This document shows positions 46,375 through 58,255 of a stretch of DNA of 64,000 nucleotides, piece by piece. Positions within the stretch are counted from its first letter, which is position 1. The number at the start of each line of letters is the position of its first letter. The stretch comes from Escherichia coli. Its GTDB lineage: Bacteria > Pseudomonadota > Gammaproteobacteria > Enterobacterales > Enterobacteriaceae. The notes under the pieces were generated by a model that had not been told where the DNA came from, searched no databases, and was given only the letters and a program-made list of their open reading frames with translations. The translations under genes were made by a program, and so were the position numbers. Where the stretch lies: assembly GCF_050920415.1 (NCBI RefSeq), contig NZ_CP169309.1; one strand, 5' to 3'.

Positions 46375-49133
<2,759 letters not shown>

Positions 49134-49136
49134 ACA

Positions 49137-49175
49137 CTGCCGGATGCGGCGCGAGCGCCTTATCCGGCCTACGGG
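49137..49175. repeat. REP element between rhaA and rhaD
   Basis: gccggatgcggcgcgagcgccttatccggcctac. Confidence 0.75.
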
Positions 49176-49215
49176 TCGTGCATCCGACAACACCGAATTT
49201 ACAGGAACACAGAAC

Positions 49216-50040
49216 ATGCAAAACATTACCCAGTCCTGGTTTGCCCAGGGAATGATCAAAGCCACCACCGACGCCTGGCTGAAAGGCTGGGACGAGCGCA
49301 ATGGTGGTAACCTGACGCTGCGCCTGGATGACGCCGATATCGCGCCTTATCACGACAACTTTCATGCACAACCGCGCTATATCCCGCTCAGCCAGCCCAT
49401 GCCTTTACTGGCAAATACACCGTTTATTGTCACCGGCTCCGGCAAATTCTTTCGTAACGTCCAGCTTGATCCTGCGGCTAACTTAGGCGTCGTAAAAGTC
49501 GACAGCGACGGCGCGGGCTACCACATTCTCTGGGGGCTAACTCACGAAGCCGTTCCAACCTCTGAACTTCCGGCTCACTTCCTTTCCCACTGCGAGCGCA
49601 TTAAAGCCACCAACGGTAAAGATCGGGTGATCATGCACTGCCACGCCACCAACCTGATCGCCCTTACCTACGTACTGGAAAACGACACCGCGCTCTTCAC
49701 TCGCCAGCTTTGGGAAGGCAGCACCGAGTGTCTGGTAGTGTTCCCGGATGGCGTCGGCATTTTGCCGTGGATGGTGCCCGGCACGGACGAAATCGGCCAG
49801 GCGACCGCACAGGAAATGCAAAAACATTCGCTGGTGTTGTGGCCCTTCCACGGCGTCTTCGGCAGCGGTCCGACACTGGATGAAACATTCGGTTTAATCG
49901 ACACCGCAGAAAAATCAGCACAAGTATTAGTGAAGGTTTATTCGATGGGCGGCATGAAACAGACCATCAGTCGTGAAGAGCTGATAGCACTCGGCCAGCG
50001 TTTCGGCGTTACACCACTAGCCAGTGCGCTGGCGCTGTAA
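49216..50040 (+). CDS. rhaD: rhamnulose-1-phosphate aldolase
   Basis: Recognised start [41 protein letters not shown]... (274 aa) at the internal ATG 49216. Confidence 0.96.
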
Positions 50041-50049
50041 GGAGCAAAC

Positions 50050-50364
50050 ATGATCCGCAAAGCCTTTGTCATGCAGGTTAACCCCGACGCCCACGAAGAG
50101 TATCAGCGTCGGCATAATCCAATCTGGCCGGAACTGGAAGCAGTGTTGAAATCTCACGGTGCGCATAACTACGCCATTTACCTCGACAAAGCGCGTAATC
50201 TGCTGTTTGCCACGGTAGAGATTGAATCTGAAGAACGGTGGAATGCGGTAGCCAGTACTGATGTTTGCCAACGTTGGTGGAAGTATATGACCGACGTTAT
50301 GCCAGCTAACCCGGATAACAGCCCAGTCAGTAGCGAGCTGCAAGAAGTGTTTTACCTGCCTTAA
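50050..50364 (+). CDS. rhaM: L-rhamnose mutarotase
   Basis: 104-aa [48 protein letters not shown]... recognised as RhaM (YiiL). Confidence 0.95.
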
Positions 50365-50404
50365 TGAGTTGCGGTGCCGGAAAATATCCAGCACCGCGCC
50401 TTCA

Positions 50405-51799
50405 TCAGAAGAAGTATTTAAAGCGAACGCGTGCGCCGTAACGGTCATCAGTATCATCACCGTGTTTTTTATCACCGTCGCTATCCAGAATGGAGTAATA
50501 AGTACCAAGGTAAATATTAAAGTTCTCCATATCCATCACATTAGCGAACTGATAAGACGCATGAATGGTGTGAATGGTGTACGTCCCTTCATCATCAATC
50601 CAGCAGTCGTTATCACAAACTACACCGCTGAATTCATCAATCTTATTGTGCGCGTAGATATAACCCAGCTCGAAACGTTTCCACAGCGCGTTAATCCCGG
50701 CAGTGAAATCTTTTTCATTATTAGCATCTAAATAGGCGGTATTAAGATTAACCACGACGCCATTTTCCGGATCCGTTTTCAGGCCATTCCAGGTCATGCT
50801 CATACCATAGCCGGTACGATCGGACTGATCGACAAAATTACCCTTGCTATCGGTATAACCATAAGCATTATTTACTACGTTCGCTTCCATCGCTGCGGAA
50901 ACGGTGAATTCTTCCGTCGGCGACCAGGCAATTACCGGACGCAGATAAGCAACATTTTTCTGCTGCTCCATATCGCGTCCATGATAATTACCGTCATTAT
51001 ATAAAGATGTTCCGTCTTCAAGTAACGTGTTTAATTCAAAATACCAGTTATCGAGTTGTTTGCTGACGAGGAAATTACCGCCAGCGTTAGAGCGCCCGCG
51101 GCCCTCTTTCATCATATAGATATAACCGCTGCCATCGTCATAAAGATCGTTCGCAGTATTACCGGAATGTTCAACAAAGGTATCCTGATTCAGCGGGAAC
51201 ATATCGTAGGCTTCAAAACGGCCTACTTTGACCTTCCAGTCGTTTTCTTTGCCAAAGAAGAATACCGCATCATCGATATTTACTGAACCGTGCATATCCC
51301 CCAGCGGTTGTGCGGAGAACCCGGCGAAATAACCATTATCCAGTTTTCGCATACCATCAAAACCTAACAGAATACGACCATTGAGATTCCACTGTTCATT
51401 AGTGGGATCACTATTCACATCAGCGTTGGTCATTGCCAGCAGGCCATGATTACTTTCTGCATCCATATTAAATTCTACGTCGCCGTAGATTTTTAAATCG
51501 CCATAACCTGAGAGCAAAAGATTAGGTGAGGTGGAATTTTTCTTTGCAGATTCCGCCGTTGTCTGTCCATTTACCGGCGTATTGCCCTGGGCAGCCTTAA
51601 TTTCGCGGATCTCAGCGGCTTGTTGTGTCTGCAGCTGTTTTACCTGCCCCTCTGCTTTTGCTGCCCGCATTTCTGCCGCTTCCAGGCGTTCTTCCAGCAA
51701 TGCCATGCGTTGTTCCAGCGTTAAATGCTGTGTTTTTGCCATTCCGGTACTACATGCCAATAATAAACCGATGGCTAAAGATAATGTCGATTTTTTCAT
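50405..51799 (-). CDS. carbohydrate-specific outer-membrane porin, LamB superfamily with N-terminal coiled-coil extension (ScrY/BglH-like)
   Basis: 464-aa ORF with signal peptide MKKSTLSLAIGLLLACSTGMA|KTQ, then a heptad-like coiled-coil stretch (LEQRMALLEERLEAAEMRAAKAEGQVKQLQTQQAAEIREIKAAQ), then an aromatic-rich beta-barrel-like body ending ...RFKYFF. Confidence 0.8.
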   Translation of the reverse strand: MKKSTLSLAIGLLLACSTGMAKTQHLTLEQRMALLEERLEAAEMRAAKAEGQVKQLQTQQAAEIREIKAAQGNTPVNGQTTAESAKKNSTSPNLLLSGYGDLKIYGDVEFNMDAESNHGLLAMTNADVNSDPTNEQWNLNGRILLGFDGMRKLDNGYFAGFSAQPLGDMHGSVNIDDAVFFFGKENDWKVKVGRFEAYDMFPLNQDTFVEHSGNTANDLYDDGSGYIYMMKEGRGRSNAGGNFLVSKQLDNWYFELNTLLEDGTSLYNDGNYHGRDMEQQKNVAYLRPVIAWSPTEEFTVSAAMEANVVNNAYGYTDSKGNFVDQSDRTGYGMSMTWNGLKTDPENGVVVNLNTAYLDANNEKDFTAGINALWKRFELGYIYAHNKIDEFSGVVCDNDCWIDDEGTYTIHTIHASYQFANVMDMENFNIYLGTYYSILDSDGDKKHGDDTDDRYGARVRFKYFF

Positions 51800-52276
51800 T
51801 ATTTACGTTCCCTGAAATAAAAGAGACCCTACGCTTTCCAAAAGGAATACGTATATAGAGAAATATAAGGTGTGCACTTTCGATTTTTTAATCCAACTTC
51901 AGCAGGCCGATGGATAGTATCCCGCTGCATAATATGAGTAAATCCGCTGATTTCCTGGAACGTGAGGAATATAACAATAGTGCCGTTTTTAACTAAATAT
52001 CGTAAAAAATATTAGATATAATTCACGCTGACTCATAAACCACAAATATAAATAACCTTGCTGCAAAATATGTGCGGCAGTTAAACATTCACAACATCAT
52101 TAAATAATGATTTTTTATTCACTGCATTTATTTTTCCCATCAATATGTGCCTTACACCGCAAAATTTATCCTTCACTCTGCCTTATATTGTCACGACTTC
52201 ACGACATATCCGCGCTCATCACAAAACCGCCCCGCCGTTACAATTAACTATAATATTTTTTCATGGAGTCCAATAA

Positions 52277-52722
52277 TGGCAGCACTTACTGCAAGCTGTA
52301 TTGACCTGAATATTCAGGGCAATGGCACTTATTCCGTTCTGAAGCAGTTAGCGACAATAGCGTTACAAAACGGTTTTATCACCGACTCACATCAATTCCT
52401 GCAAACCCTGCTGCTGCGCGAAAAAATGCACTCCACGGGATTTGGTTCCGGTGTCGCCGTGCCGCACGGTAAAAGCGCCTGTGTTAAACAACCGTTCGTA
52501 TTATTCGCTCGCAAAGCGCAGGCCATTGACTGGAAAGCCAGCGATGGCGAAGACGTCAATTGCTGGATCTGCCTCGGCGTGCCGCAAAGTGGCGAAGAGG
52601 ATCAGGTCAAAATCATCGGCACACTGTGTCGCAAAATTATCCACCAGGATTTTATCAACCAACTGCGACAAGGCGACGCCGTCCAGGTGCTTGCTTTGTT
52701 AAATCAAACCCTCAGCTCATAA
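52277..52722 (+). CDS. frvA: PTS fructose-like EIIA component
   Basis: Recognised N-terminus MAALTASCIDLNIQGNGTYSVLKQLATIALQNGFITDSHQF... (148 aa) at the internal ATG 52277 of the track ORF 52147-52722; conserved HGKS-type phosphorylation region present. Confidence 0.88.
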
Positions 52723-52732
52723 GGAAGTGGCG

Positions 52733-54184
52733 ATGGAGTCATCCTTACGTATTGTCGCGATCACCAACTGCCCCGCCGGGATCGCTCACACCTACATGGT
52801 GGCGGAAGCCCTGGAACAGAAAGCCCGTTCTCTCGGCCATACCATTAAAGTGGAAACTCAAGGGTCAAGCGGCGTTGAAAACCGCTTATCCTGCGAAGAG
52901 ATTGCCGCTGCCGATTATGTCATTCTCGCTACCGGGCGTGGCCTGAGCGGTGACGATCGCGCGCGGTTTGCCGGGAAAAAGGTGTATGAGATTGCCATCT
53001 CTCAGGCACTGAAAAATATCGACCATATTTTCAGTGAATTGCCGACAAACTCACAACTTTTTGCCGCAGATAGCGGCGTGAAGCTCGGCAAACAGGAAGT
53101 GCAAAGTGGCAGCGTAATGAGCCATCTGATGGCGGGCGTCTCTGCGGCGCTGCCGTTTGTCATCGGTGGCGGTATCCTGGTGGCGCTTGCCAACATGCTG
53201 GTGCAGTTCGGTTTGCCGTATACCGATATGTCGAAAGGTGCGCCGTCGTTTACCTGGGTGGTTGAATCCATCGGTTATCTCGGTTTCACCTTTATGATCC
53301 CCATCATGGGCGCTTATATTGCCTCGTCGATAGCCGATAAACCCGCTTTCGCTCCGGCGTTTCTGGTTTGCTATCTGGCGAACGACAAAGCCCTGCTCGG
53401 CACCCAGTCTGGCGCGGGCTTCCTCGGTGCGGTGGTGCTGGGGCTGGCGATTGGCTATTTCGTCTTCTGGTTCCGTAAAGTCCGTCTCGGCAAAGCGTTA
53501 CAACCGCTGCTCGGTTCCATGCTTATCCCGTTCGTTACTCTGCTGGTTTTTGGCGTACTGACTTACTACGTTATCGGACCGGTGATGTCCGATCTCATGG
53601 GCGGGCTGCTGCACTTCCTGAACACCATCCCTCCATCAATGAAGTTTGCGGCGGCGTTTCTGGTCGGTGCGATGCTGGCGTTCGATATGGGCGGCCCCAT
53701 CAACAAAACCGCCTGGTTCTTCTGCTTCTCACTGCTGGAAAAACACATTTACGACTGGTACGCCATCGTCGGCGTTGTCGCGCTAATGCCGCCTGTCGCG
53801 GCGGGTCTTGCGACGTTCATTGCGCCCAAACTGTTTACTCAACAGGAAAAAGAAGCCGCCAGTAGTGCCATTGTGGTCGGTGCCACAGTCGCAACCGAAC
53901 CGGCTATTCCTTACGCTCTGGCCGCTCCGTTACCGATGATTACCGCCAACACGCTGGCGGGCGGTATTACCGGCGTGCTGGTGATCACTTTCGGAATCAA
54001 ACGGCTGGCACCGGGTTTGGGTATCTTTGACCCGCTGATCGGCCTGATGTCGCCGGTAGGTTCATTTTATCTGGTGCTGGCGATTGGCCTCGCGCTGAAC
54101 ATTTCATTCATTATCGTCCTGAAAGGATTATGGTTACGCCGCAAAGCCAAAGCTGCGCAACAGGAGCTTGTCCATGAACATTGA
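52733..54184 (+). CDS. frvB: PTS fructose-like EIIBC component
   Basis: MESSLRIVAITNCPAGIAHTYMVAEALEQKA... (EIIB cysteine motif NCPAG) followed by a polytopic EIIC domain; ATG at 52733 (track ORF begins at GTG 52727). Confidence 0.92.
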   Translation: MESSLRIVAITNCPAGIAHTYMVAEALEQKARSLGHTIKVETQGSSGVENRLSCEEIAAADYVILATGRGLSGDDRARFAGKKVYEIAISQALKNIDHIFSELPTNSQLFAADSGVKLGKQEVQSGSVMSHLMAGVSAALPFVIGGGILVALANMLVQFGLPYTDMSKGAPSFTWVVESIGYLGFTFMIPIMGAYIASSIADKPAFAPAFLVCYLANDKALLGTQSGAGFLGAVVLGLAIGYFVFWFRKVRLGKALQPLLGSMLIPFVTLLVFGVLTYYVIGPVMSDLMGGLLHFLNTIPPSMKFAAAFLVGAMLAFDMGGPINKTAWFFCFSLLEKHIYDWYAIVGVVALMPPVAAGLATFIAPKLFTQQEKEAASSAIVVGATVATEPAIPYALAAPLPMITANTLAGGITGVLVITFGIKRLAPGLGIFDPLIGLMSPVGSFYLVLAIGLALNISFIIVLKGLWLRRKAKAAQQELVHEH

Positions 54185-55244
54185 GTTACTGCAACAGTTG
54201 TGCGAAGCCAGCGCCGTCAGCGGCGATGAACAGGAAGTTCGCGACATTCTGATGAACACGCTGGAACCCTGCGTGAATGAGATCACCTTCGATGGTCTGG
54301 GCAGCTTTGTTGCCCGTAAGGGGAATAAAGGGCCGAAAGTTGCCGTTGTCGGGCATATGGATGAAGTCGGCTTTATGGTCACCCACATCGACGAGAGCGG
54401 TTTTCTGCGTTTTACCACCATTGGCGGCTGGTGGAATCAGTCGATGCTCAACCACCGGGTAACCATACGCACACACAAGGGAGTGAAAATCCCTGGTGTA
54501 ATTGGCTCCGTCGCGCCACATGCGTTAACCGAAAAGCAAAAGCAACAACCGCTGTCATTTGATGAGATGTTCATTGATATTGGCGCAAACAGTCGCGAAG
54601 AAGCGGAAAAACGTGGCGTGGAAATTGGCGATTTTATTAGCCCGGAAGCCAATTTTGCCTGCTGGGGCGAAGATAAAGTGGTCGGCAAGGCGTTGGATAA
54701 CCGCATCGGCTGCGCAATGATGGCTGAGCTATTGCAGACGGTGAATAACCCCGAAATTACGCTGTATGGCGTTGGCAGTGTGGAAGAAGAAGTTGGGCTA
54801 CGCGGGGCGCAAACCTCGGCTGAACACATTAAACCGGATGTGGTGATCGTGCTGGATACCGCTGTCGCGGGCGATGTTCCAGGCATTGATAACATTAAAT
54901 ATCCGCTGAAACTGGGCAACGGGCCGGGGCTGATGCTGTTTGACAAGCGCTACTTCCCCAACCAGAAACTGGTAGCAGCGTTAAAAAGCTGTGCCACGCA
55001 GAATGATTTACCGCTGCAATTTTCCACTATGAAAACCGGTGCGACGGATGGCGGGCGCTACAACGTGATGGGCGGCGGGCGTCCGGTTGTCGCGCTGTGC
55101 CTGCCAACGCGTTATCTGCACGCCAATAGCGGTATGATTTCAAAAGCCGATTACGATGCTCTGCTCACGTTGATAAGGGATTTTCTGACCACTTTAACCG
55201 CGGAGAAAGTCAACGCGTTTAGCCAGTTCCGTCAGGTGGATTAA
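54174..55244 (+). CDS. frvX: M42-family aminopeptidase / cellulase-like protein FrvX
   Basis: MNIELLQQLCEASAVSGDEQEVRDILMNTLEPCVNEITFDGLGSFVARKGNKGPKVAVVGHMDEVGF...; overlaps the frvB 3' end. Confidence 0.92.
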   Translation: MNIELLQQLCEASAVSGDEQEVRDILMNTLEPCVNEITFDGLGSFVARKGNKGPKVAVVGHMDEVGFMVTHIDESGFLRFTTIGGWWNQSMLNHRVTIRTHKGVKIPGVIGSVAPHALTEKQKQQPLSFDEMFIDIGANSREEAEKRGVEIGDFISPEANFACWGEDKVVGKALDNRIGCAMMAELLQTVNNPEITLYGVGSVEEEVGLRGAQTSAEHIKPDVVIVLDTAVAGDVPGIDNIKYPLKLGNGPGLMLFDKRYFPNQKLVAALKSCATQNDLPLQFSTMKTGATDGGRYNVMGGGRPVVALCLPTRYLHANSGMISKADYDALLTLIRDFLTTLTAEKVNAFSQFRQVD

Positions 55245-56992
55245 TGCTAAACGAACGCCAGTTAAAGATTGTCGATCTGCTGGAGCAACAGCCACGCACG
55301 CCTGGCGAGCTGGCGCAACAGACTGGCGTTTCTGGCAGGACCATCCTGCGTGATATTGACTATCTCAACTTTACCCTTAACGGCAAAGCCCGCATTTCCG
55401 CCAGTGGCAACGCGGGCTATCAGCTGGAAATCTTCGAGCGCCGCAGCTTTTTTCAGTTGCTGCAAAAGCACGATAACGACGATCGGCTGCTGGCGCTGTT
55501 ATTACTGAATACCTTTACTCCCCGTGCGCAACTCGCCTCGGCGCTTAATTTGCCAGAAACGTGGGTAGCAGAGCGCCTGCCCCGCCTGAAACAGCGCTAT
55601 GAACGCGGTTTTTGTCTCGCTAGTCGCCCTGGTTTGGGCCATTTCATTGATGAGACAGAAGAGAAACGCATTATTTTGCTGGCGAATCTTTTACGCAAAG
55701 ATCCGTTTTTAATTCCGCTGTCGGGAGTAACACGAGACAATTTTCAACAATTAACCACCGCCTGCGAAAAGCAACGTCGCTGGCCGCTGATGCAAGGCGA
55801 CTATCTCTCAAGCCTGATTCTGGCTATTTACGCGTTGCGTAATCAGCTTACTGACACATGGCCTGAATATCCCGGTAGCGAGATAAAACAGATTGTTGAA
55901 TATAGCGGCCTGTTTCTTGGTGATAACGCTGTAAGAACGTTGACGGGGTTGATAGAAAAACAGCATCAACAGGCGCAGGTTATTTGTGTCGATAATGTGC
56001 TGGCATTGCTGCAAAGGGTGCCGGGCATTGCGTCATTGAATATTATTGATACGCAACTGGTTGAGAATATTACCGGGCATTTATTACGTTGCCTTGCCGC
56101 GCCGGTGTGGATTGGAGAGCACCGCCAAAGCAGCATGAATAACCTGAAAGCCGCCTGGCCTGCGGCCTTTGATATGAGTCTGCACTTTATTACGCTACTG
56201 CGTGAACAACTCGATATTCCCCTTTTCGACAGCGATCTGATTGGTTTGTATTTTGCCTGTGCGCTGGAACGGCATCAAAACGAACGCCAGCCGATCATTT
56301 TGCTCTCTGATCAGAACGCGATTGCCACTATTAATCAGCTCGCCATTGAGCGCGATGTCCTGAATTGTCGGGTGATTATTGCCCGCAGCGTAAGCGAACT
56401 GGTTGCCATTCGCGAAGAGATTGAGCCGTTATTGATCATTAATAACAGCCATTATTTACTGGATGACGCGGTCAATAATTGCATCATCGTAAAAAATATC
56501 ATTACGGCTGCCGGTATCGAACAAATAAAACATTTTCTGGCGACGGCATTTATTCGCCAGCAACCGGAGCGTTTTTTTTCTGCCCCCGGAAGTTTTCATT
56601 ATTCGAATGTACGTGGTGAAAGCTGGCAACATATTACCCGGCAAATATGTGCGCAATTAGTGACGCAACACCACATTACCGCCGATGAAGCACAACGGAT
56701 CATCGCCCGCGAAAGCGAAGGCGAAAACCTGATTGTTAATCGTCTCGCCATCCCACATTGCTGGAGCGAACAGGAACGACGTTTTCGTGGATTTTTTATT
56801 ACCCTCGCCCAACCGGTTGAGGTGAATAACGAAGTCATTAACCATGTGCTGATCGCCTGTGCCGCCGCCGATGCGCGTCATGAGCTAAAAATATTTAGCT
56901 ATCTTGCCAGCGTATTGTGCCAGCATCCGGCAGAGGTTATTGCCGGGTTAACAGGATATGAGGCATTTATGGAGTTACTTCACAAGGGGTGA
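55244..56992 (+). CDS. frvR: putative frv operon regulator (HTH plus PRD/PTS-regulatory-like domains)
   Basis: 582-aa ORF MLNERQLKIVDLLEQQPRTPGELAQQTGVSGRTILRDIDYLNF...; start overlaps the frvX stop (TAATG). Confidence 0.9.
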   Translation: MLNERQLKIVDLLEQQPRTPGELAQQTGVSGRTILRDIDYLNFTLNGKARISASGNAGYQLEIFERRSFFQLLQKHDNDDRLLALLLLNTFTPRAQLASALNLPETWVAERLPRLKQRYERGFCLASRPGLGHFIDETEEKRIILLANLLRKDPFLIPLSGVTRDNFQQLTTACEKQRRWPLMQGDYLSSLILAIYALRNQLTDTWPEYPGSEIKQIVEYSGLFLGDNAVRTLTGLIEKQHQQAQVICVDNVLALLQRVPGIASLNIIDTQLVENITGHLLRCLAAPVWIGEHRQSSMNNLKAAWPAAFDMSLHFITLLREQLDIPLFDSDLIGLYFACALERHQNERQPIILLSDQNAIATINQLAIERDVLNCRVIIARSVSELVAIREEIEPLLIINNSHYLLDDAVNNCIIVKNIITAAGIEQIKHFLATAFIRQQPERFFSAPGSFHYSNVRGESWQHITRQICAQLVTQHHITADEAQRIIARESEGENLIVNRLAIPHCWSEQERRFRGFFITLAQPVEVNNEVINHVLIACAAADARHELKIFSYLASVLCQHPAEVIAGLTGYEAFMELLHKG

Positions 56993-57047
56993 ACTGTGTC
57001 GGATGCGCCGCATCCGACACTGCATTTATCACCAAAATCAAAAACAT

Positions 57048-58103
57048 TTAACGCAGGCGATTATAATCATCGACCATTTCGTTGTACTCGCGTAACGCTC
57101 GCGGAAATGAGTCGTCGACCATCCAGCTTGTGTTTGCATCCTGAAGTTGCTCTTTATCCCAGTCAGAATACGGAACTTTATCTCTGACGCGGCGAACATA
57201 TTTTTTAGCCTCGAGTTGATACTGGTCTGCCGAATTAATGAACGAGAAATTCATACCGCCTTTATCCGCTTCTTTGGCCTGCGCCACCAGCGTTTCCAGT
57301 TCAGAGACTTTCTTCATTGCCGCATCAACATCAAACTTCTCTTGCGAAATCAGGTTATTAATTTGTTTCGCTGAAATCATGACTGCCAGGGAGTAGTAGT
57401 GGAATGTTTTTCCTTCTGTTTCTTCAATATTTTTCAGTTCCGCAAGCTGACGCTTATCGTTAATTTCCTGAATCGCCGCATGATAAGATTCTGCTACAGG
57501 TTCAAAGGCTTCAAGATTTTTTAAGAATGTCTGGTGCAGCGTTTTCCCTTTCGCAAACGCATCGTCTTTATAATTTTCCTGGGTGTAATATTTATCCATT
57601 TCGTTAATGGTATTACCCAACGCCACGGCAGCATCAATATAACTCACCGCCACGCCATCAATAGGTTGCAGCGCAGGCGTTAACGCCACAGCACTTTTTA
57701 CGCCTTTTTCACACTCAGCGAGGTTGGATTCACTAATACCGTAGATACCATAAACAGTACGCTCTTCACCGGTAGGGCCCTGTTTAAAATCTTTCAGCCA
57801 GTCAGCATAACGCGCCAGACTGCTCTGTACAGGAATCTGTAAGTTGTTGTAGCACTTGATATAGATATCCATTTTTTCGTCGAAAACCGCTTGTTCATCC
57901 ACCACCGGTTGCGCAGGTGTTTCAGGTTTAGCTTCTGCTTTTGCAACGGGAGCTTCAGTAGGTTTCGCTTCAGGAGCTAGTGCGGCAGGTTGACTATTGG
58001 CAGGCGGGGGCGTTTCTGTTTCGGTTTTTTTATCATCACAACCCGTGATACCGAGAGCCATGATGGCGGCTATAATAGCGGAAGATAATAAATTCCTTTT
58101 CAT
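57048..58103 (-). CDS. yiiG: YiiG-family (DUF3829) lipoprotein
   Basis: 351-aa ORF with lipoprotein signal MKRNLLSSAIIAAIMALGITG|CDDKK (lipobox LGITGC). Confidence 0.88.
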   Translation of the reverse strand: MKRNLLSSAIIAAIMALGITGCDDKKTETETPPPANSQPAALAPEAKPTEAPVAKAEAKPETPAQPVVDEQAVFDEKMDIYIKCYNNLQIPVQSSLARYADWLKDFKQGPTGEERTVYGIYGISESNLAECEKGVKSAVALTPALQPIDGVAVSYIDAAVALGNTINEMDKYYTQENYKDDAFAKGKTLHQTFLKNLEAFEPVAESYHAAIQEINDKRQLAELKNIEETEGKTFHYYSLAVMISAKQINNLISQEKFDVDAAMKKVSELETLVAQAKEADKGGMNFSFINSADQYQLEAKKYVRRVRDKVPYSDWDKEQLQDANTSWMVDDSFPRALREYNEMVDDYNRLR

Positions 58104-58255
58104 TTAATTGCCTTATAAATATATAGATAAGAGAGTAAACATAATAAAGGAAAAAAGAAAATGCCACTACACGCGTTTTGTTTATAAATAAAACGATAAA
58201 ATTCACGAAATGAATAAGTCCTGCAATTTAATATATATCGCAGGACTTATTTTAA

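Follow-up and report, generated by a model that had tools for sequence, protein, structure and literature searches.

Between rhaM and frvA, a 64,000-nt stretch of Escherichia coli DNA (the window) carries a porin gene that, judged by its sequence, is an intact chromosomal glycoporin of the RafY family. We consider it probable that the gene encodes a sugar pore expressed from its own promoter, that it is an old resident of this locus lost in K-12, and that it is unrelated to the frv genes. The gene itself is already known: it is annotated in thousands of genomes, under the RefSeq name 'carbohydrate porin', and is an accessory gene carried by roughly half of E. coli strains. As a discovery it therefore has little weight. 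The present analysis adds its assignment to the RafY family with a predicted 16-strand barrel, its absence from K-12 by loss rather than a gain elsewhere, its independence from frv, and a conserved upstream element. A wide sugar pore in half of the species could affect both oligosaccharide use and outer-membrane permeability.

Family assignment and predicted fold

The porin gene was predicted between rhaM and frvA as an open reading frame of 464 aa, and we found it uninterrupted; in the 100%-identical strain MFDS1022581, RefSeq places a 'carbohydrate porin' (WP_000749927.1) at the same coordinates (Table 1). It is convergent to rhaM, which ends at 50364, and, as originally proposed, divergent from frvA, which starts at 52276 on the opposite strand. 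The protein matched the full length of the Pfam family Porin_8 "glycoporin RafY" (PF16966; E 3.7e-154, model positions 1-372 of 372, aa 104-464), and 14/14 aligned orthologues matched the family too. The earlier call of a sugar-type outer-membrane porin was correct. No NCBIfam family was found for it. Because of the full-length Pfam match and a dN/dS of 0.044, we regard the porin as a real gene and not a chance ORF.

Table 1. Features of the rhaM-frvA region, in window coordinates
Feature	Position	Strand	Basis or remark
rhaM-porin spacer, 40 nt between convergent stop codons	50365..50404	.	hairpin stem core 50371-50397
Porin CDS, 464 aa	50405..51799	-	uninterrupted ORF; stop codon 50405-50407
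Predicted beta-barrel domain, aa 100-464	50408..51502	-	AlphaFold2 model
Predicted periplasmic N-terminal coiled-coil extension, aa 27-70	51590..51721	-	helix model and heptads
Predicted signal peptide, aa 1-21 (MKKSTLSLAIGLLLACSTGMA, followed by KT)	51737..51799	-	putative cleavage after G-M-A
Upstream DNA travelling with the porin, absent from K-12	51800..52140	.	K-12 blastn; present in ST131
Candidate porin promoter	51914..51942	-	-35 TTTACT (51937-51942), 17-nt spacer, -10 TACTAT (51914-51919)
CRP-like site TGTTATATTCCTCACG	51961..51976	-	starts 177 nt upstream of the porin ATG
frvA-proximal 135 bp, common to K-12	52141..52275	+	blastn of the K-12 locus

The RafY family was reportedly first described in 1997, and work of that year by Ulmke is said to have shown complementation of lamB and scrY mutants by plasmid RafY. 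With the plasmid protein, which is encoded in pRSD2-type rafRABD-rafY clusters (TCDB 1.B.15), the window porin shares the length of 464 aa, the C-terminal RFKYFF and the same arrangement of leader, coiled-coil extension and Porin_8 barrel. Identity was 79% (86% positives over 450 aa), measured against the porin of the E. coli plasmid pCR-0299_1, which served as the RafY reference instead of the pRSD2 sequence itself. The pCR-0299_1 porin is encoded by the last gene of a rafR-rafA-rafB-rafD cluster and bears the UniRef name RafY, whereas the chromosomal porin is an orphan: none of the raf genes (rafR, rafA, rafB or rafD) lies beside it among the window ORFs. The two also differ upstream, where the chromosomal gene has a long region with a conserved CRP-like site and the plasmid has a rafD-rafY spacer without it. 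A chromosomal rafY homologue that lacks rafRABD has been named rafY2 in O157:H7 (PMC4809568), and it is probably the same gene.

The original prediction had placed the protein in the LamB superfamily, close to ScrY and BglH, and this assignment has to be replaced by RafY. The LamB-family profile PF02264 had no match at E ≤ 10 in the window protein or its 14 orthologues, and PDB sequence searches that included LamB and ScrY chains gave none at E ≤ 10 with either the single protein or a 40-sequence profile. Moreover, the ScrY/LamB/BglH group (PF02264, TCDB 1.B.3) has an 18-stranded barrel, as opposed to the 16 strands predicted here. What the window porin would share with this group is the type of channel, namely an outer-membrane oligosaccharide channel, and possibly a coiled-coil extension of the ScrY type.

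In the AlphaFold2 model (mean pLDDT 81, >90 across most of the barrel), 16 long strands lie between aa 100 and 463, with a long strand-free segment (aa 195-240) after strand 5. The closest structural matches of the model were 16-stranded porins, and the barrel as modelled is of the general-porin type. For this family, TCDB likewise gives 16 strands (PMC4827864). Likeness to OprB, Vibrio ChiP and OprP (16-stranded, trimeric and substrate-preferring) and to Acinetobacter baumannii DcaP was limited to the level of fold, with 8-14% identity and no sequence-level relationship. The barrel has a Cys395/Cys399 pair that is conserved in the orthologue alignment, and a C-terminal Phe.

The N-terminal coiled-coil extension claimed at the outset was recovered in the model as a single helix of roughly 45 residues (aa 28-70) with hydrophobic residues at heptad positions a and d. 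The Sugarporin_N profile (PF11471) matched it weakly in the window protein (E 0.08); across the orthologues, E was ≤1e-3 in 5/14 and ≤0.1 in 14/14. The leader preceding the extension was modelled as a hydrophobic helix at aa 4-16, and in the 14 orthologues it ends in a conserved A or S, then K or another small residue. A lipoprotein leader, considered on account of a lipobox-like LLAC motif, was rejected: of the 13 other proteins in the alignment, 12 lack the Cys and one has it elsewhere in the leader.

Upstream region and proposed function

The porin-frvA spacer (51800..52275) is AT-rich as predicted (35% G+C), although at 476 bp it is one base pair shorter than the 477 bp given. It contains neither direct repeats nor meaningful short ORFs. 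A search of 50300-52400 against Rfam identified no RNA family, as its two weak matches scored far under the gathering thresholds. Remnants of raf, XRE-cupin or azlCD genes were not found in the spacer (best tblastn E 0.099), and nucleotide similarity did not extend past the ribosome-binding region. Such an AT-rich region could be silenced in the laboratory.

A CRP-like motif, TGTTA-N6-TCACG, was present 161-242 nt upstream of the ATG in 16/16 rha-linked orthologues examined. It is conserved whichever gene is the upstream neighbour: an XRE-cupin regulator with azlCD in Citrobacter and Kluyvera, rafR-rafA-rafB in Klebsiella, and frvA in E. coli. Besides the plasmid spacer, it is missing from six distant paralogues. 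It is through its conservation only that the site is credible, one half-site being imperfect (TGTTA) and chance matches being estimated at ~0.1-0.2 per spacer of such size. Our reading of the sequence and a TTTAC block conserved in the alignment make TTTACT-17-TACTAT a candidate promoter of the porin; it would put the CRP-like site at about -61.5. A consensus promoter scan gave another candidate, TTAAAA-18-TATATT at 51891-51862. The conserved upstream element suggests a catabolite-controlled promoter of the porin's own.

In the explanation that we prefer, the porin would be transcribed from its own promoter, likely with activation by cAMP-CRP via the conserved site. By analogy with plasmid RafY, the protein is probably trimeric, with the periplasmic coiled coil holding the trimer together, and probably forms a wide diffusion pore of weak selectivity. 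Through a pore of this kind, di- to oligosaccharides (raffinose, stachyose, sucrose and maltodextrins) would probably enter faster at low concentration, feeding inner-membrane permeases, for example LacY or MelB, or RafB where present. Because we found no experiment on the chromosomal copy, the proposed substrate range, trimeric state and expression pattern are extrapolations from the plasmid protein. A wide pore that raises the uptake of raffinose, sucrose and maltodextrins is reported for the plasmid protein alone (refs 102, 103 of PMC4827864).

A more far-reaching account would have strains that lack raf genes use a CRP-controlled pore to scavenge plant alpha-galactosides or other gut glycans. 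The patchy presence of the gene would then reflect a trade-off between nutrient access and exposure to phage, colicin or antibiotic entering via the wide pore, with service to frv as the less likely role. As a joint proposal, this seems to us doubtful.

Loss from K-12 and age of the locus

In K-12 MG1655, only 300 bp separate rhaM from frvA. Blastn of this K-12 locus against the window showed that homology ends at 50365 and restarts at 52141, with 1775 bp in the window facing 164 unrelated bp in K-12. The porin is absent from K-12, as had been suspected, and the extra DNA foreseen at this position exists, but its net surplus of 1611 bp is slightly larger than the 1.3-1.5 kb estimated. The 164 bp specific to K-12 had no match in the compared loci.

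Divergence between the window and ST131 alleles was similar for the porin (dS 0.21) and for rhaM (0.23), rhaD (0.24) and rhaA (0.17). Because the dS of the porin matches that of the flanking rha genes, the porin is an old resident that was lost in K-12-like lineages and not one that was inserted. At least two different events removed it: the K-12-type replacement and, in strain HS30-1, an IS1-associated deletion. The dN/dS of the porin between these alleles is as low as that of the rha enzymes, and the gene is under strong purifying selection.

The arrangement is shared across genera. The porin is convergent to rhaM in Escherichia, Citrobacter, Kluyvera, Pseudocitrobacter, Klebsiella and Superficieibacter, and at the loci examined in other genera, rhaM is its constant neighbour. 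The rha-linked orthologues outside Escherichia (Klebsiella being represented by Klebsiella sp. B345) are 70-85% identical to the window porin, with Superficieibacter at 70-71%, and carry the same upstream motif. Genes for raffinose use lie close by in some genera: in Klebsiella sp. B345, rafR-rafA-rafB directly adjoins the porin on its upstream side, in Enterobacter sp. ENT03 on its downstream side, and in Superficieibacter rafA-rafB is no more than 4 kb away. More distant homologues adjoin a LacY-like MFS gene and a GH32 gene. These outgroup loci are a sample rather than a full count; a scan of genome contigs gave at least 41 loci with homologues, with no other Escherichia species among the matches listed, where the entry for Escherichia sp. 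ESNIH1 is a distant homologue (59% identity).

These data bear on whether the gene is a silent relic, either the remnant of a chromosomal raf cluster or a cryptic gene, that lacks a current function in E. coli and is being lost. Its orphan position, its loss from roughly half of the complete genomes through more than one route, and its G+C content (44.6% vs 52-55% in the flanks) next to an AT-rich upstream region could all be read in this way. So could the Klebsiella pneumoniae RafY, which sera of infected mice hardly recognised (PMC13410258). However, a relic would not be expected to show a dN/dS of 0.044 at a dS of 0.21, a full 464-aa frame and upstream motif conserved across genera, and at least 80% of the gene kept in 2556 genomes. 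We therefore consider a relic improbable.

Relationship to the frv and rha genes

Porins encoded within PTS operons have precedents in ScrY and BglH, and the original prediction had drawn an uptake pathway from the porin through EIIABC to FrvX. In that scheme, the porin would be an outer-membrane channel dedicated to the frv PTS (porin, FrvAB, FrvX), co-regulated with it from the shared divergent spacer. Some neighbourhoods agree with this: the porin and frvA are direct divergent neighbours in E. coli and in Enterobacter sp. ENT03, and in Kluyvera genomosp. 1 and strain RIT691 no more than 3 kb separate frv from the porin. Across 5426 complete E. coli genomes, however, the porin (counted at ≥80% of the gene) was found in 2556 and frvABX in 4186, and the two were side by side in 1378, fewer than the 1972 expected for co-occurrence if they were independent. 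The porin occurred without adjacent frv in ~1178 genomes, and frv without the porin in ~2808.

Individual loci argue in the same direction. B2/ST131 genomes have deleted exactly frvABXR (window 52259-57066) and kept the porin intact. In Citrobacter, no frv was found within ~8 kb upstream of the porin, and in Kluyvera three genes separate the porin from frvA. The ENT03 porin is co-oriented with rafRAB and not with frv, and the porin's conserved upstream element is also found beside other upstream neighbours. K-12 retains the frvA-proximal 135 bp without the porin, and therefore the frvA promoter region is independent of the porin. In the window, the porin lies on the strand opposite to frvABXR, 476 bp from frvA, and is neither co-oriented nor co-transcribed with it. 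A literature search for frvA together with a porin returned nothing relevant. By these comparisons of genome sequences, inheritance of the porin in E. coli is independent of that of the frv genes, and the proposed pathway finds no support; a dedicated frv channel is highly improbable. The adjacency of porin and frvA in E. coli most likely arose through loss of the XRE-cupin regulator and azlCD, which lie between them in Kluyvera, and is most likely no sign of a common pathway.

On its other side, the porin is separated from rhaM by a strong hairpin. The fold of 50362-50407 reached a dG of -20.9 kcal/mol (z -5.3) on the plus strand and -27.1 kcal/mol (z -6.5) on the minus strand, and 0/200 shuffles folded equally well. 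We read it as a likely bidirectional terminator, one without a U-tract. Given the constant, convergent rhaM neighbour in six genera, a role in rhamnose metabolism might be envisaged, for example in the uptake of rhamnose-containing oligosaccharides, but it is scarcely credible: the genes stand tail to tail with this hairpin between their stop codons, hence are not co-transcribed, the porin promoter is on the side away from rha, complete rha genes persist without the porin in K-12 and in roughly half of E. coli, and relatives of the porin are linked to raf or sucrose-type genes.

The porin gene and its family

The gene between rhaM and frvA is real and was correctly located by the original prediction. 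The 464-aa open reading frame and the layout were borne out, with the spacer to frvA one base shorter than the 477 bp first given. With rhaM ending at 50364 and frvA beginning at 52276, this spacer occupies the interval listed in the table. Across the porin stretch, the window was 100% identical to E. coli strain MFDS1022581, for which RefSeq gives the order rhaD, rhaM, "carbohydrate porin" (WP_000749927.1, minus strand), frvA, frvB, frvX and frvR. The convergent rhaM and porin genes have 40 nt between their stop codons, and this stretch folds into a strong hairpin whichever strand is taken (dG -20.9 kcal/mol with z -5.3, and dG -27.1 kcal/mol with z -6.5). An AT-rich inverted repeat brackets the region upstream of frvA.

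Features of the porin locus and its surroundings (window coordinates)
Feature	Position	Strand	Details
Divergent rha-to-frv haplotype	about 46400-54200
rhaA-rhaD spacer	49134-49215		82 bp
Break in homology to K-12 MG1655	50365 (stops), 52141 (restarts)
Porin ORF	50405..51799	-	464 aa
C-x3-C pair	50603-50617		Cys395/Cys399
LLAC of the leader	51752-51763		aa 13-16
Porin-frvA spacer	51800..52275		476 bp, 35% G+C
Second, weak promoter candidate	51891-51862		from consensus scan
Candidate -10	51914-51919		TACTAT
Candidate -35	51937-51942		TTTAC(T/A), 17-nt spacer to -10
CRP-like motif	51961-51976	-	resembles CRP site
Inverted repeat	52004-52023 / 52242-52261		20 nt, 85% complementary
frvABXR deletion in ST131	52259-57066		begins 17 nt before frvA start codon
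Adjoining segment, ST131 comparison	57067-58160

The gene is a known and named member of its family, on three lines of evidence. First, Pfam yielded one strong match, to Porin_8 (PF16966, "Porin-like glycoporin RafY"; E 3.7e-154, model positions 1-372 of 372), and a weak one to Sugarporin_N (aa 27-52, E 0.08); no NCBIfam model matched. Second, E. coli plasmids carry a DNA match of lower identity (about 87%), the last gene after those for a LacI-type regulator, an alpha-galactosidase, an MFS permease and a GH32 hydrolase. This cluster is the classical rafR-A-B-D-Y operon, and its porin, named RafY in UniRef, is equal in length and 79% identical to the window protein. The RafY family was described in 1997 and is small: in a search of 1.84 billion proteins, only 235 representatives at 50% identity scored E ≤ 1e-3. 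Third, according to a passage in PMC4809568, O157:H7 lacks rafRABD and carries a homologue of rafY under the name rafY2; the O157:H7 porin sits at the same rhaM-frvA position, so rafY2 is probably the window gene. The porin is thus an already annotated RafY-family glycoporin and not a new gene.

Absence from K-12 and age at the locus

As predicted, the porin is missing from K-12. The rhaM-frvA gap of MG1655 measures 300 bp: 1775 bp of the window (the porin plus 341 bp of upstream DNA) are represented there by 164 unrelated bp, and the 135 bp adjoining frvA are common to both. Extra DNA is therefore present, and the net difference of 1611 bp slightly exceeds the 1.3-1.5 kb originally estimated.

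When the window allele of the porin was compared with that of ST131, dS was 0.21 and dN/dS 0.044; the flanking rhaM, rhaD and rhaA gave dS values of 0.23, 0.24 and 0.17. The porin's divergence parallels that of the neighbouring genes, and it has been under strong purifying selection. This fits an old functional resident and argues against both a recent insertion and a decaying relic. We conclude that the porin is an ancestral accessory gene of the rha-side junction, lost by K-12.

The entire rha-to-frv region forms a haplotype of unusual divergence (~0.17-0.28 per synonymous site from both K-12 and ST131), and a 2.9-kb query was matched at ≥99% identity in only 17 of 5612 records. The rhaA-rhaD spacer is 450 bp in K-12 and 266 bp in ST131 versus 82 bp in the window, a length polymorphism presumably due to repetitive extragenic elements.

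Association with frv, gene order and the control region

We counted the genes in 5426 complete E. coli genomes, requiring at least 80% of the gene(s). The porin was present in 2556 and frvABX in 4186; about 1178 of the porin carriers had no frv next to it, about 2808 genomes had frv but no porin, and about 62 lacked both. The rhaM-porin-frvA arrangement of the window was found in 1378 genomes, below the 1972 expected to have both under independence. A truncated yiiG and then fdhD come directly after the porin in ST131, frvABXR having been deleted from an ancestor with both porin and frv. This deletion is clean (ST131 locus L002, 10254-10808), and internal deletions also leave yiiG (DUF3829) a pseudogene. 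Strain HS30-1 represents an independent, IS-associated loss of porin, frvABXR and yiiG: an IS1A element abuts a 75-nt 3' porin remnant, and fdhD comes directly after (locus L058, 2501-3290). A complete rafR-A-B-D-Y also occurs on many plasmids (the porin search gave about 200 plasmid places) and chromosomally, in an island with an integrase beside a tRNA-Phe gene in strain CUVET17-972 (locus L059, 9001-18178); some strains may thus have two RafY paralogues.

In Citrobacter (including C. rodentium), Kluyvera and Pseudocitrobacter, whose porins share 73-85% identity with the window protein, the order is azlD-azlC, an XRE-cupin regulator, porin, then convergent rhaM and rha genes. Kluyvera genomosp. 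1 and strain RIT691 have frvRXBA just past azlCD; the E. coli layout equals that of Kluyvera genomosp. 1 minus the regulator and azlCD. Klebsiella sp. B345 has XRE-cupin, rafR, rafA, rafB and porin before convergent rhaM, Superficieibacter has rafA-rafB upstream at a distance of about 4 kb, and Enterobacter sp. ENT03 has frvRXBA divergent from the porin and rafR-rafA-rafB after it. For more distant homologues (55-64% identical), the genes directly upstream encode a LacY-like MFS protein and a GH32 protein or, in Buttiauxella, an ABC transporter together with GH13 and GH130 proteins. The single constant neighbour is rhaM, tail-to-tail; as functional partners, genes for oligosaccharide permeases and hydrolases recur, and frv adjoins the porin occasionally. 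The E. coli porin-frvA spacer contained no remnants of raf, XRE-cupin or azl genes. In Citrobacter, Kluyvera, Klebsiella and relatives, the rha cluster has a gene for an iron-type alcohol dehydrogenase (fucO-like) between rhaD and rhaM, accompanied in Kluyvera and Klebsiella by an ABC sugar transporter; the window and K-12 have neither there.

Upstream alignment revealed one conserved block amid poorly conserved DNA. In 16/16 rha-linked orthologues examined (E. coli 2, Citrobacter 3, Kluyvera 4, Klebsiella, Pseudocitrobacter 2, Superficieibacter 2, ENT03 and RIT691), TGTTA-N6-TCACG occurs at 161-242 nt before the ATG, regardless of whether frvA, XRE-cupin or rafB lies upstream. The motif was found neither in the plasmid rafD-rafY spacer nor in six distant paralogues. 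The CRP consensus is TGTGA-N6-TCACA; one such match would carry no significance were it not conserved. A conserved TTTAC(T/A) follows 18 nt downstream. Read as -35 and -10, the candidate hexamers would put the CRP-like site at about -61.5, a class I CRP position, with a predicted leader of roughly 105 nt. The proposed uptake pathway from porin to frv found no support in gene order, co-occurrence or regulatory DNA.

Predicted structure and leader

The LamB-superfamily label of the original prediction was imprecise; the likeness to ScrY is limited to the N-terminal coiled coil. No LamB-family Pfam match was obtained for the window protein or 13 orthologues, and Sugarporin_N (PF11471) matched 5/14 orthologues at E ≤ 1e-3 and 14/14 at E ≤ 0.1. 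A PDB sequence search (E ≤ 10) matched no chain to the single protein or to a profile of 40 diverse family members, and so detected no solved structure of the family; neither Pfam nor PDB searches linked it to LamB or ScrY.

An AlphaFold2 model built from the 40-sequence alignment (mean pLDDT 81, pTM 0.71; pLDDT above 90 across most of the barrel) began with a leader helix, followed by a single long helix at aa 28-70, a disordered linker and a set of 16 long strands (aa 100-463). The Foldseek top 50 were almost all 16-stranded porins (BpsOmp38, VhChiP, PorB, OmpU/T, OprB, OprP, OmpF/C), with LamB and ScrY not among them. This agrees with a TCDB table listing 16 strands for RafY and 18 for sugar porins (PMC4827864), and with the title of Andersen et al. 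By analogy with plasmid RafY and from the model, the porin would most likely form a trimeric, wide, weakly selective oligosaccharide pore. It would most likely be expressed from its own catabolite-controlled promoter.

The LLAC of the leader fits the lipobox pattern. Lipidation is probably not its role, as the Cys is missing in 12/13 other aligned proteins and shifted in plasmid RafY; ordinary signal-peptidase I cleavage after GMA is therefore more likely. Cys395, Cys399 and the C-terminal Phe are conserved in the alignment. The C-x3-C pair, kept across 14 family members, lies in a strand-free, lower-confidence segment of the model (aa 388-404) and may form a disulfide.
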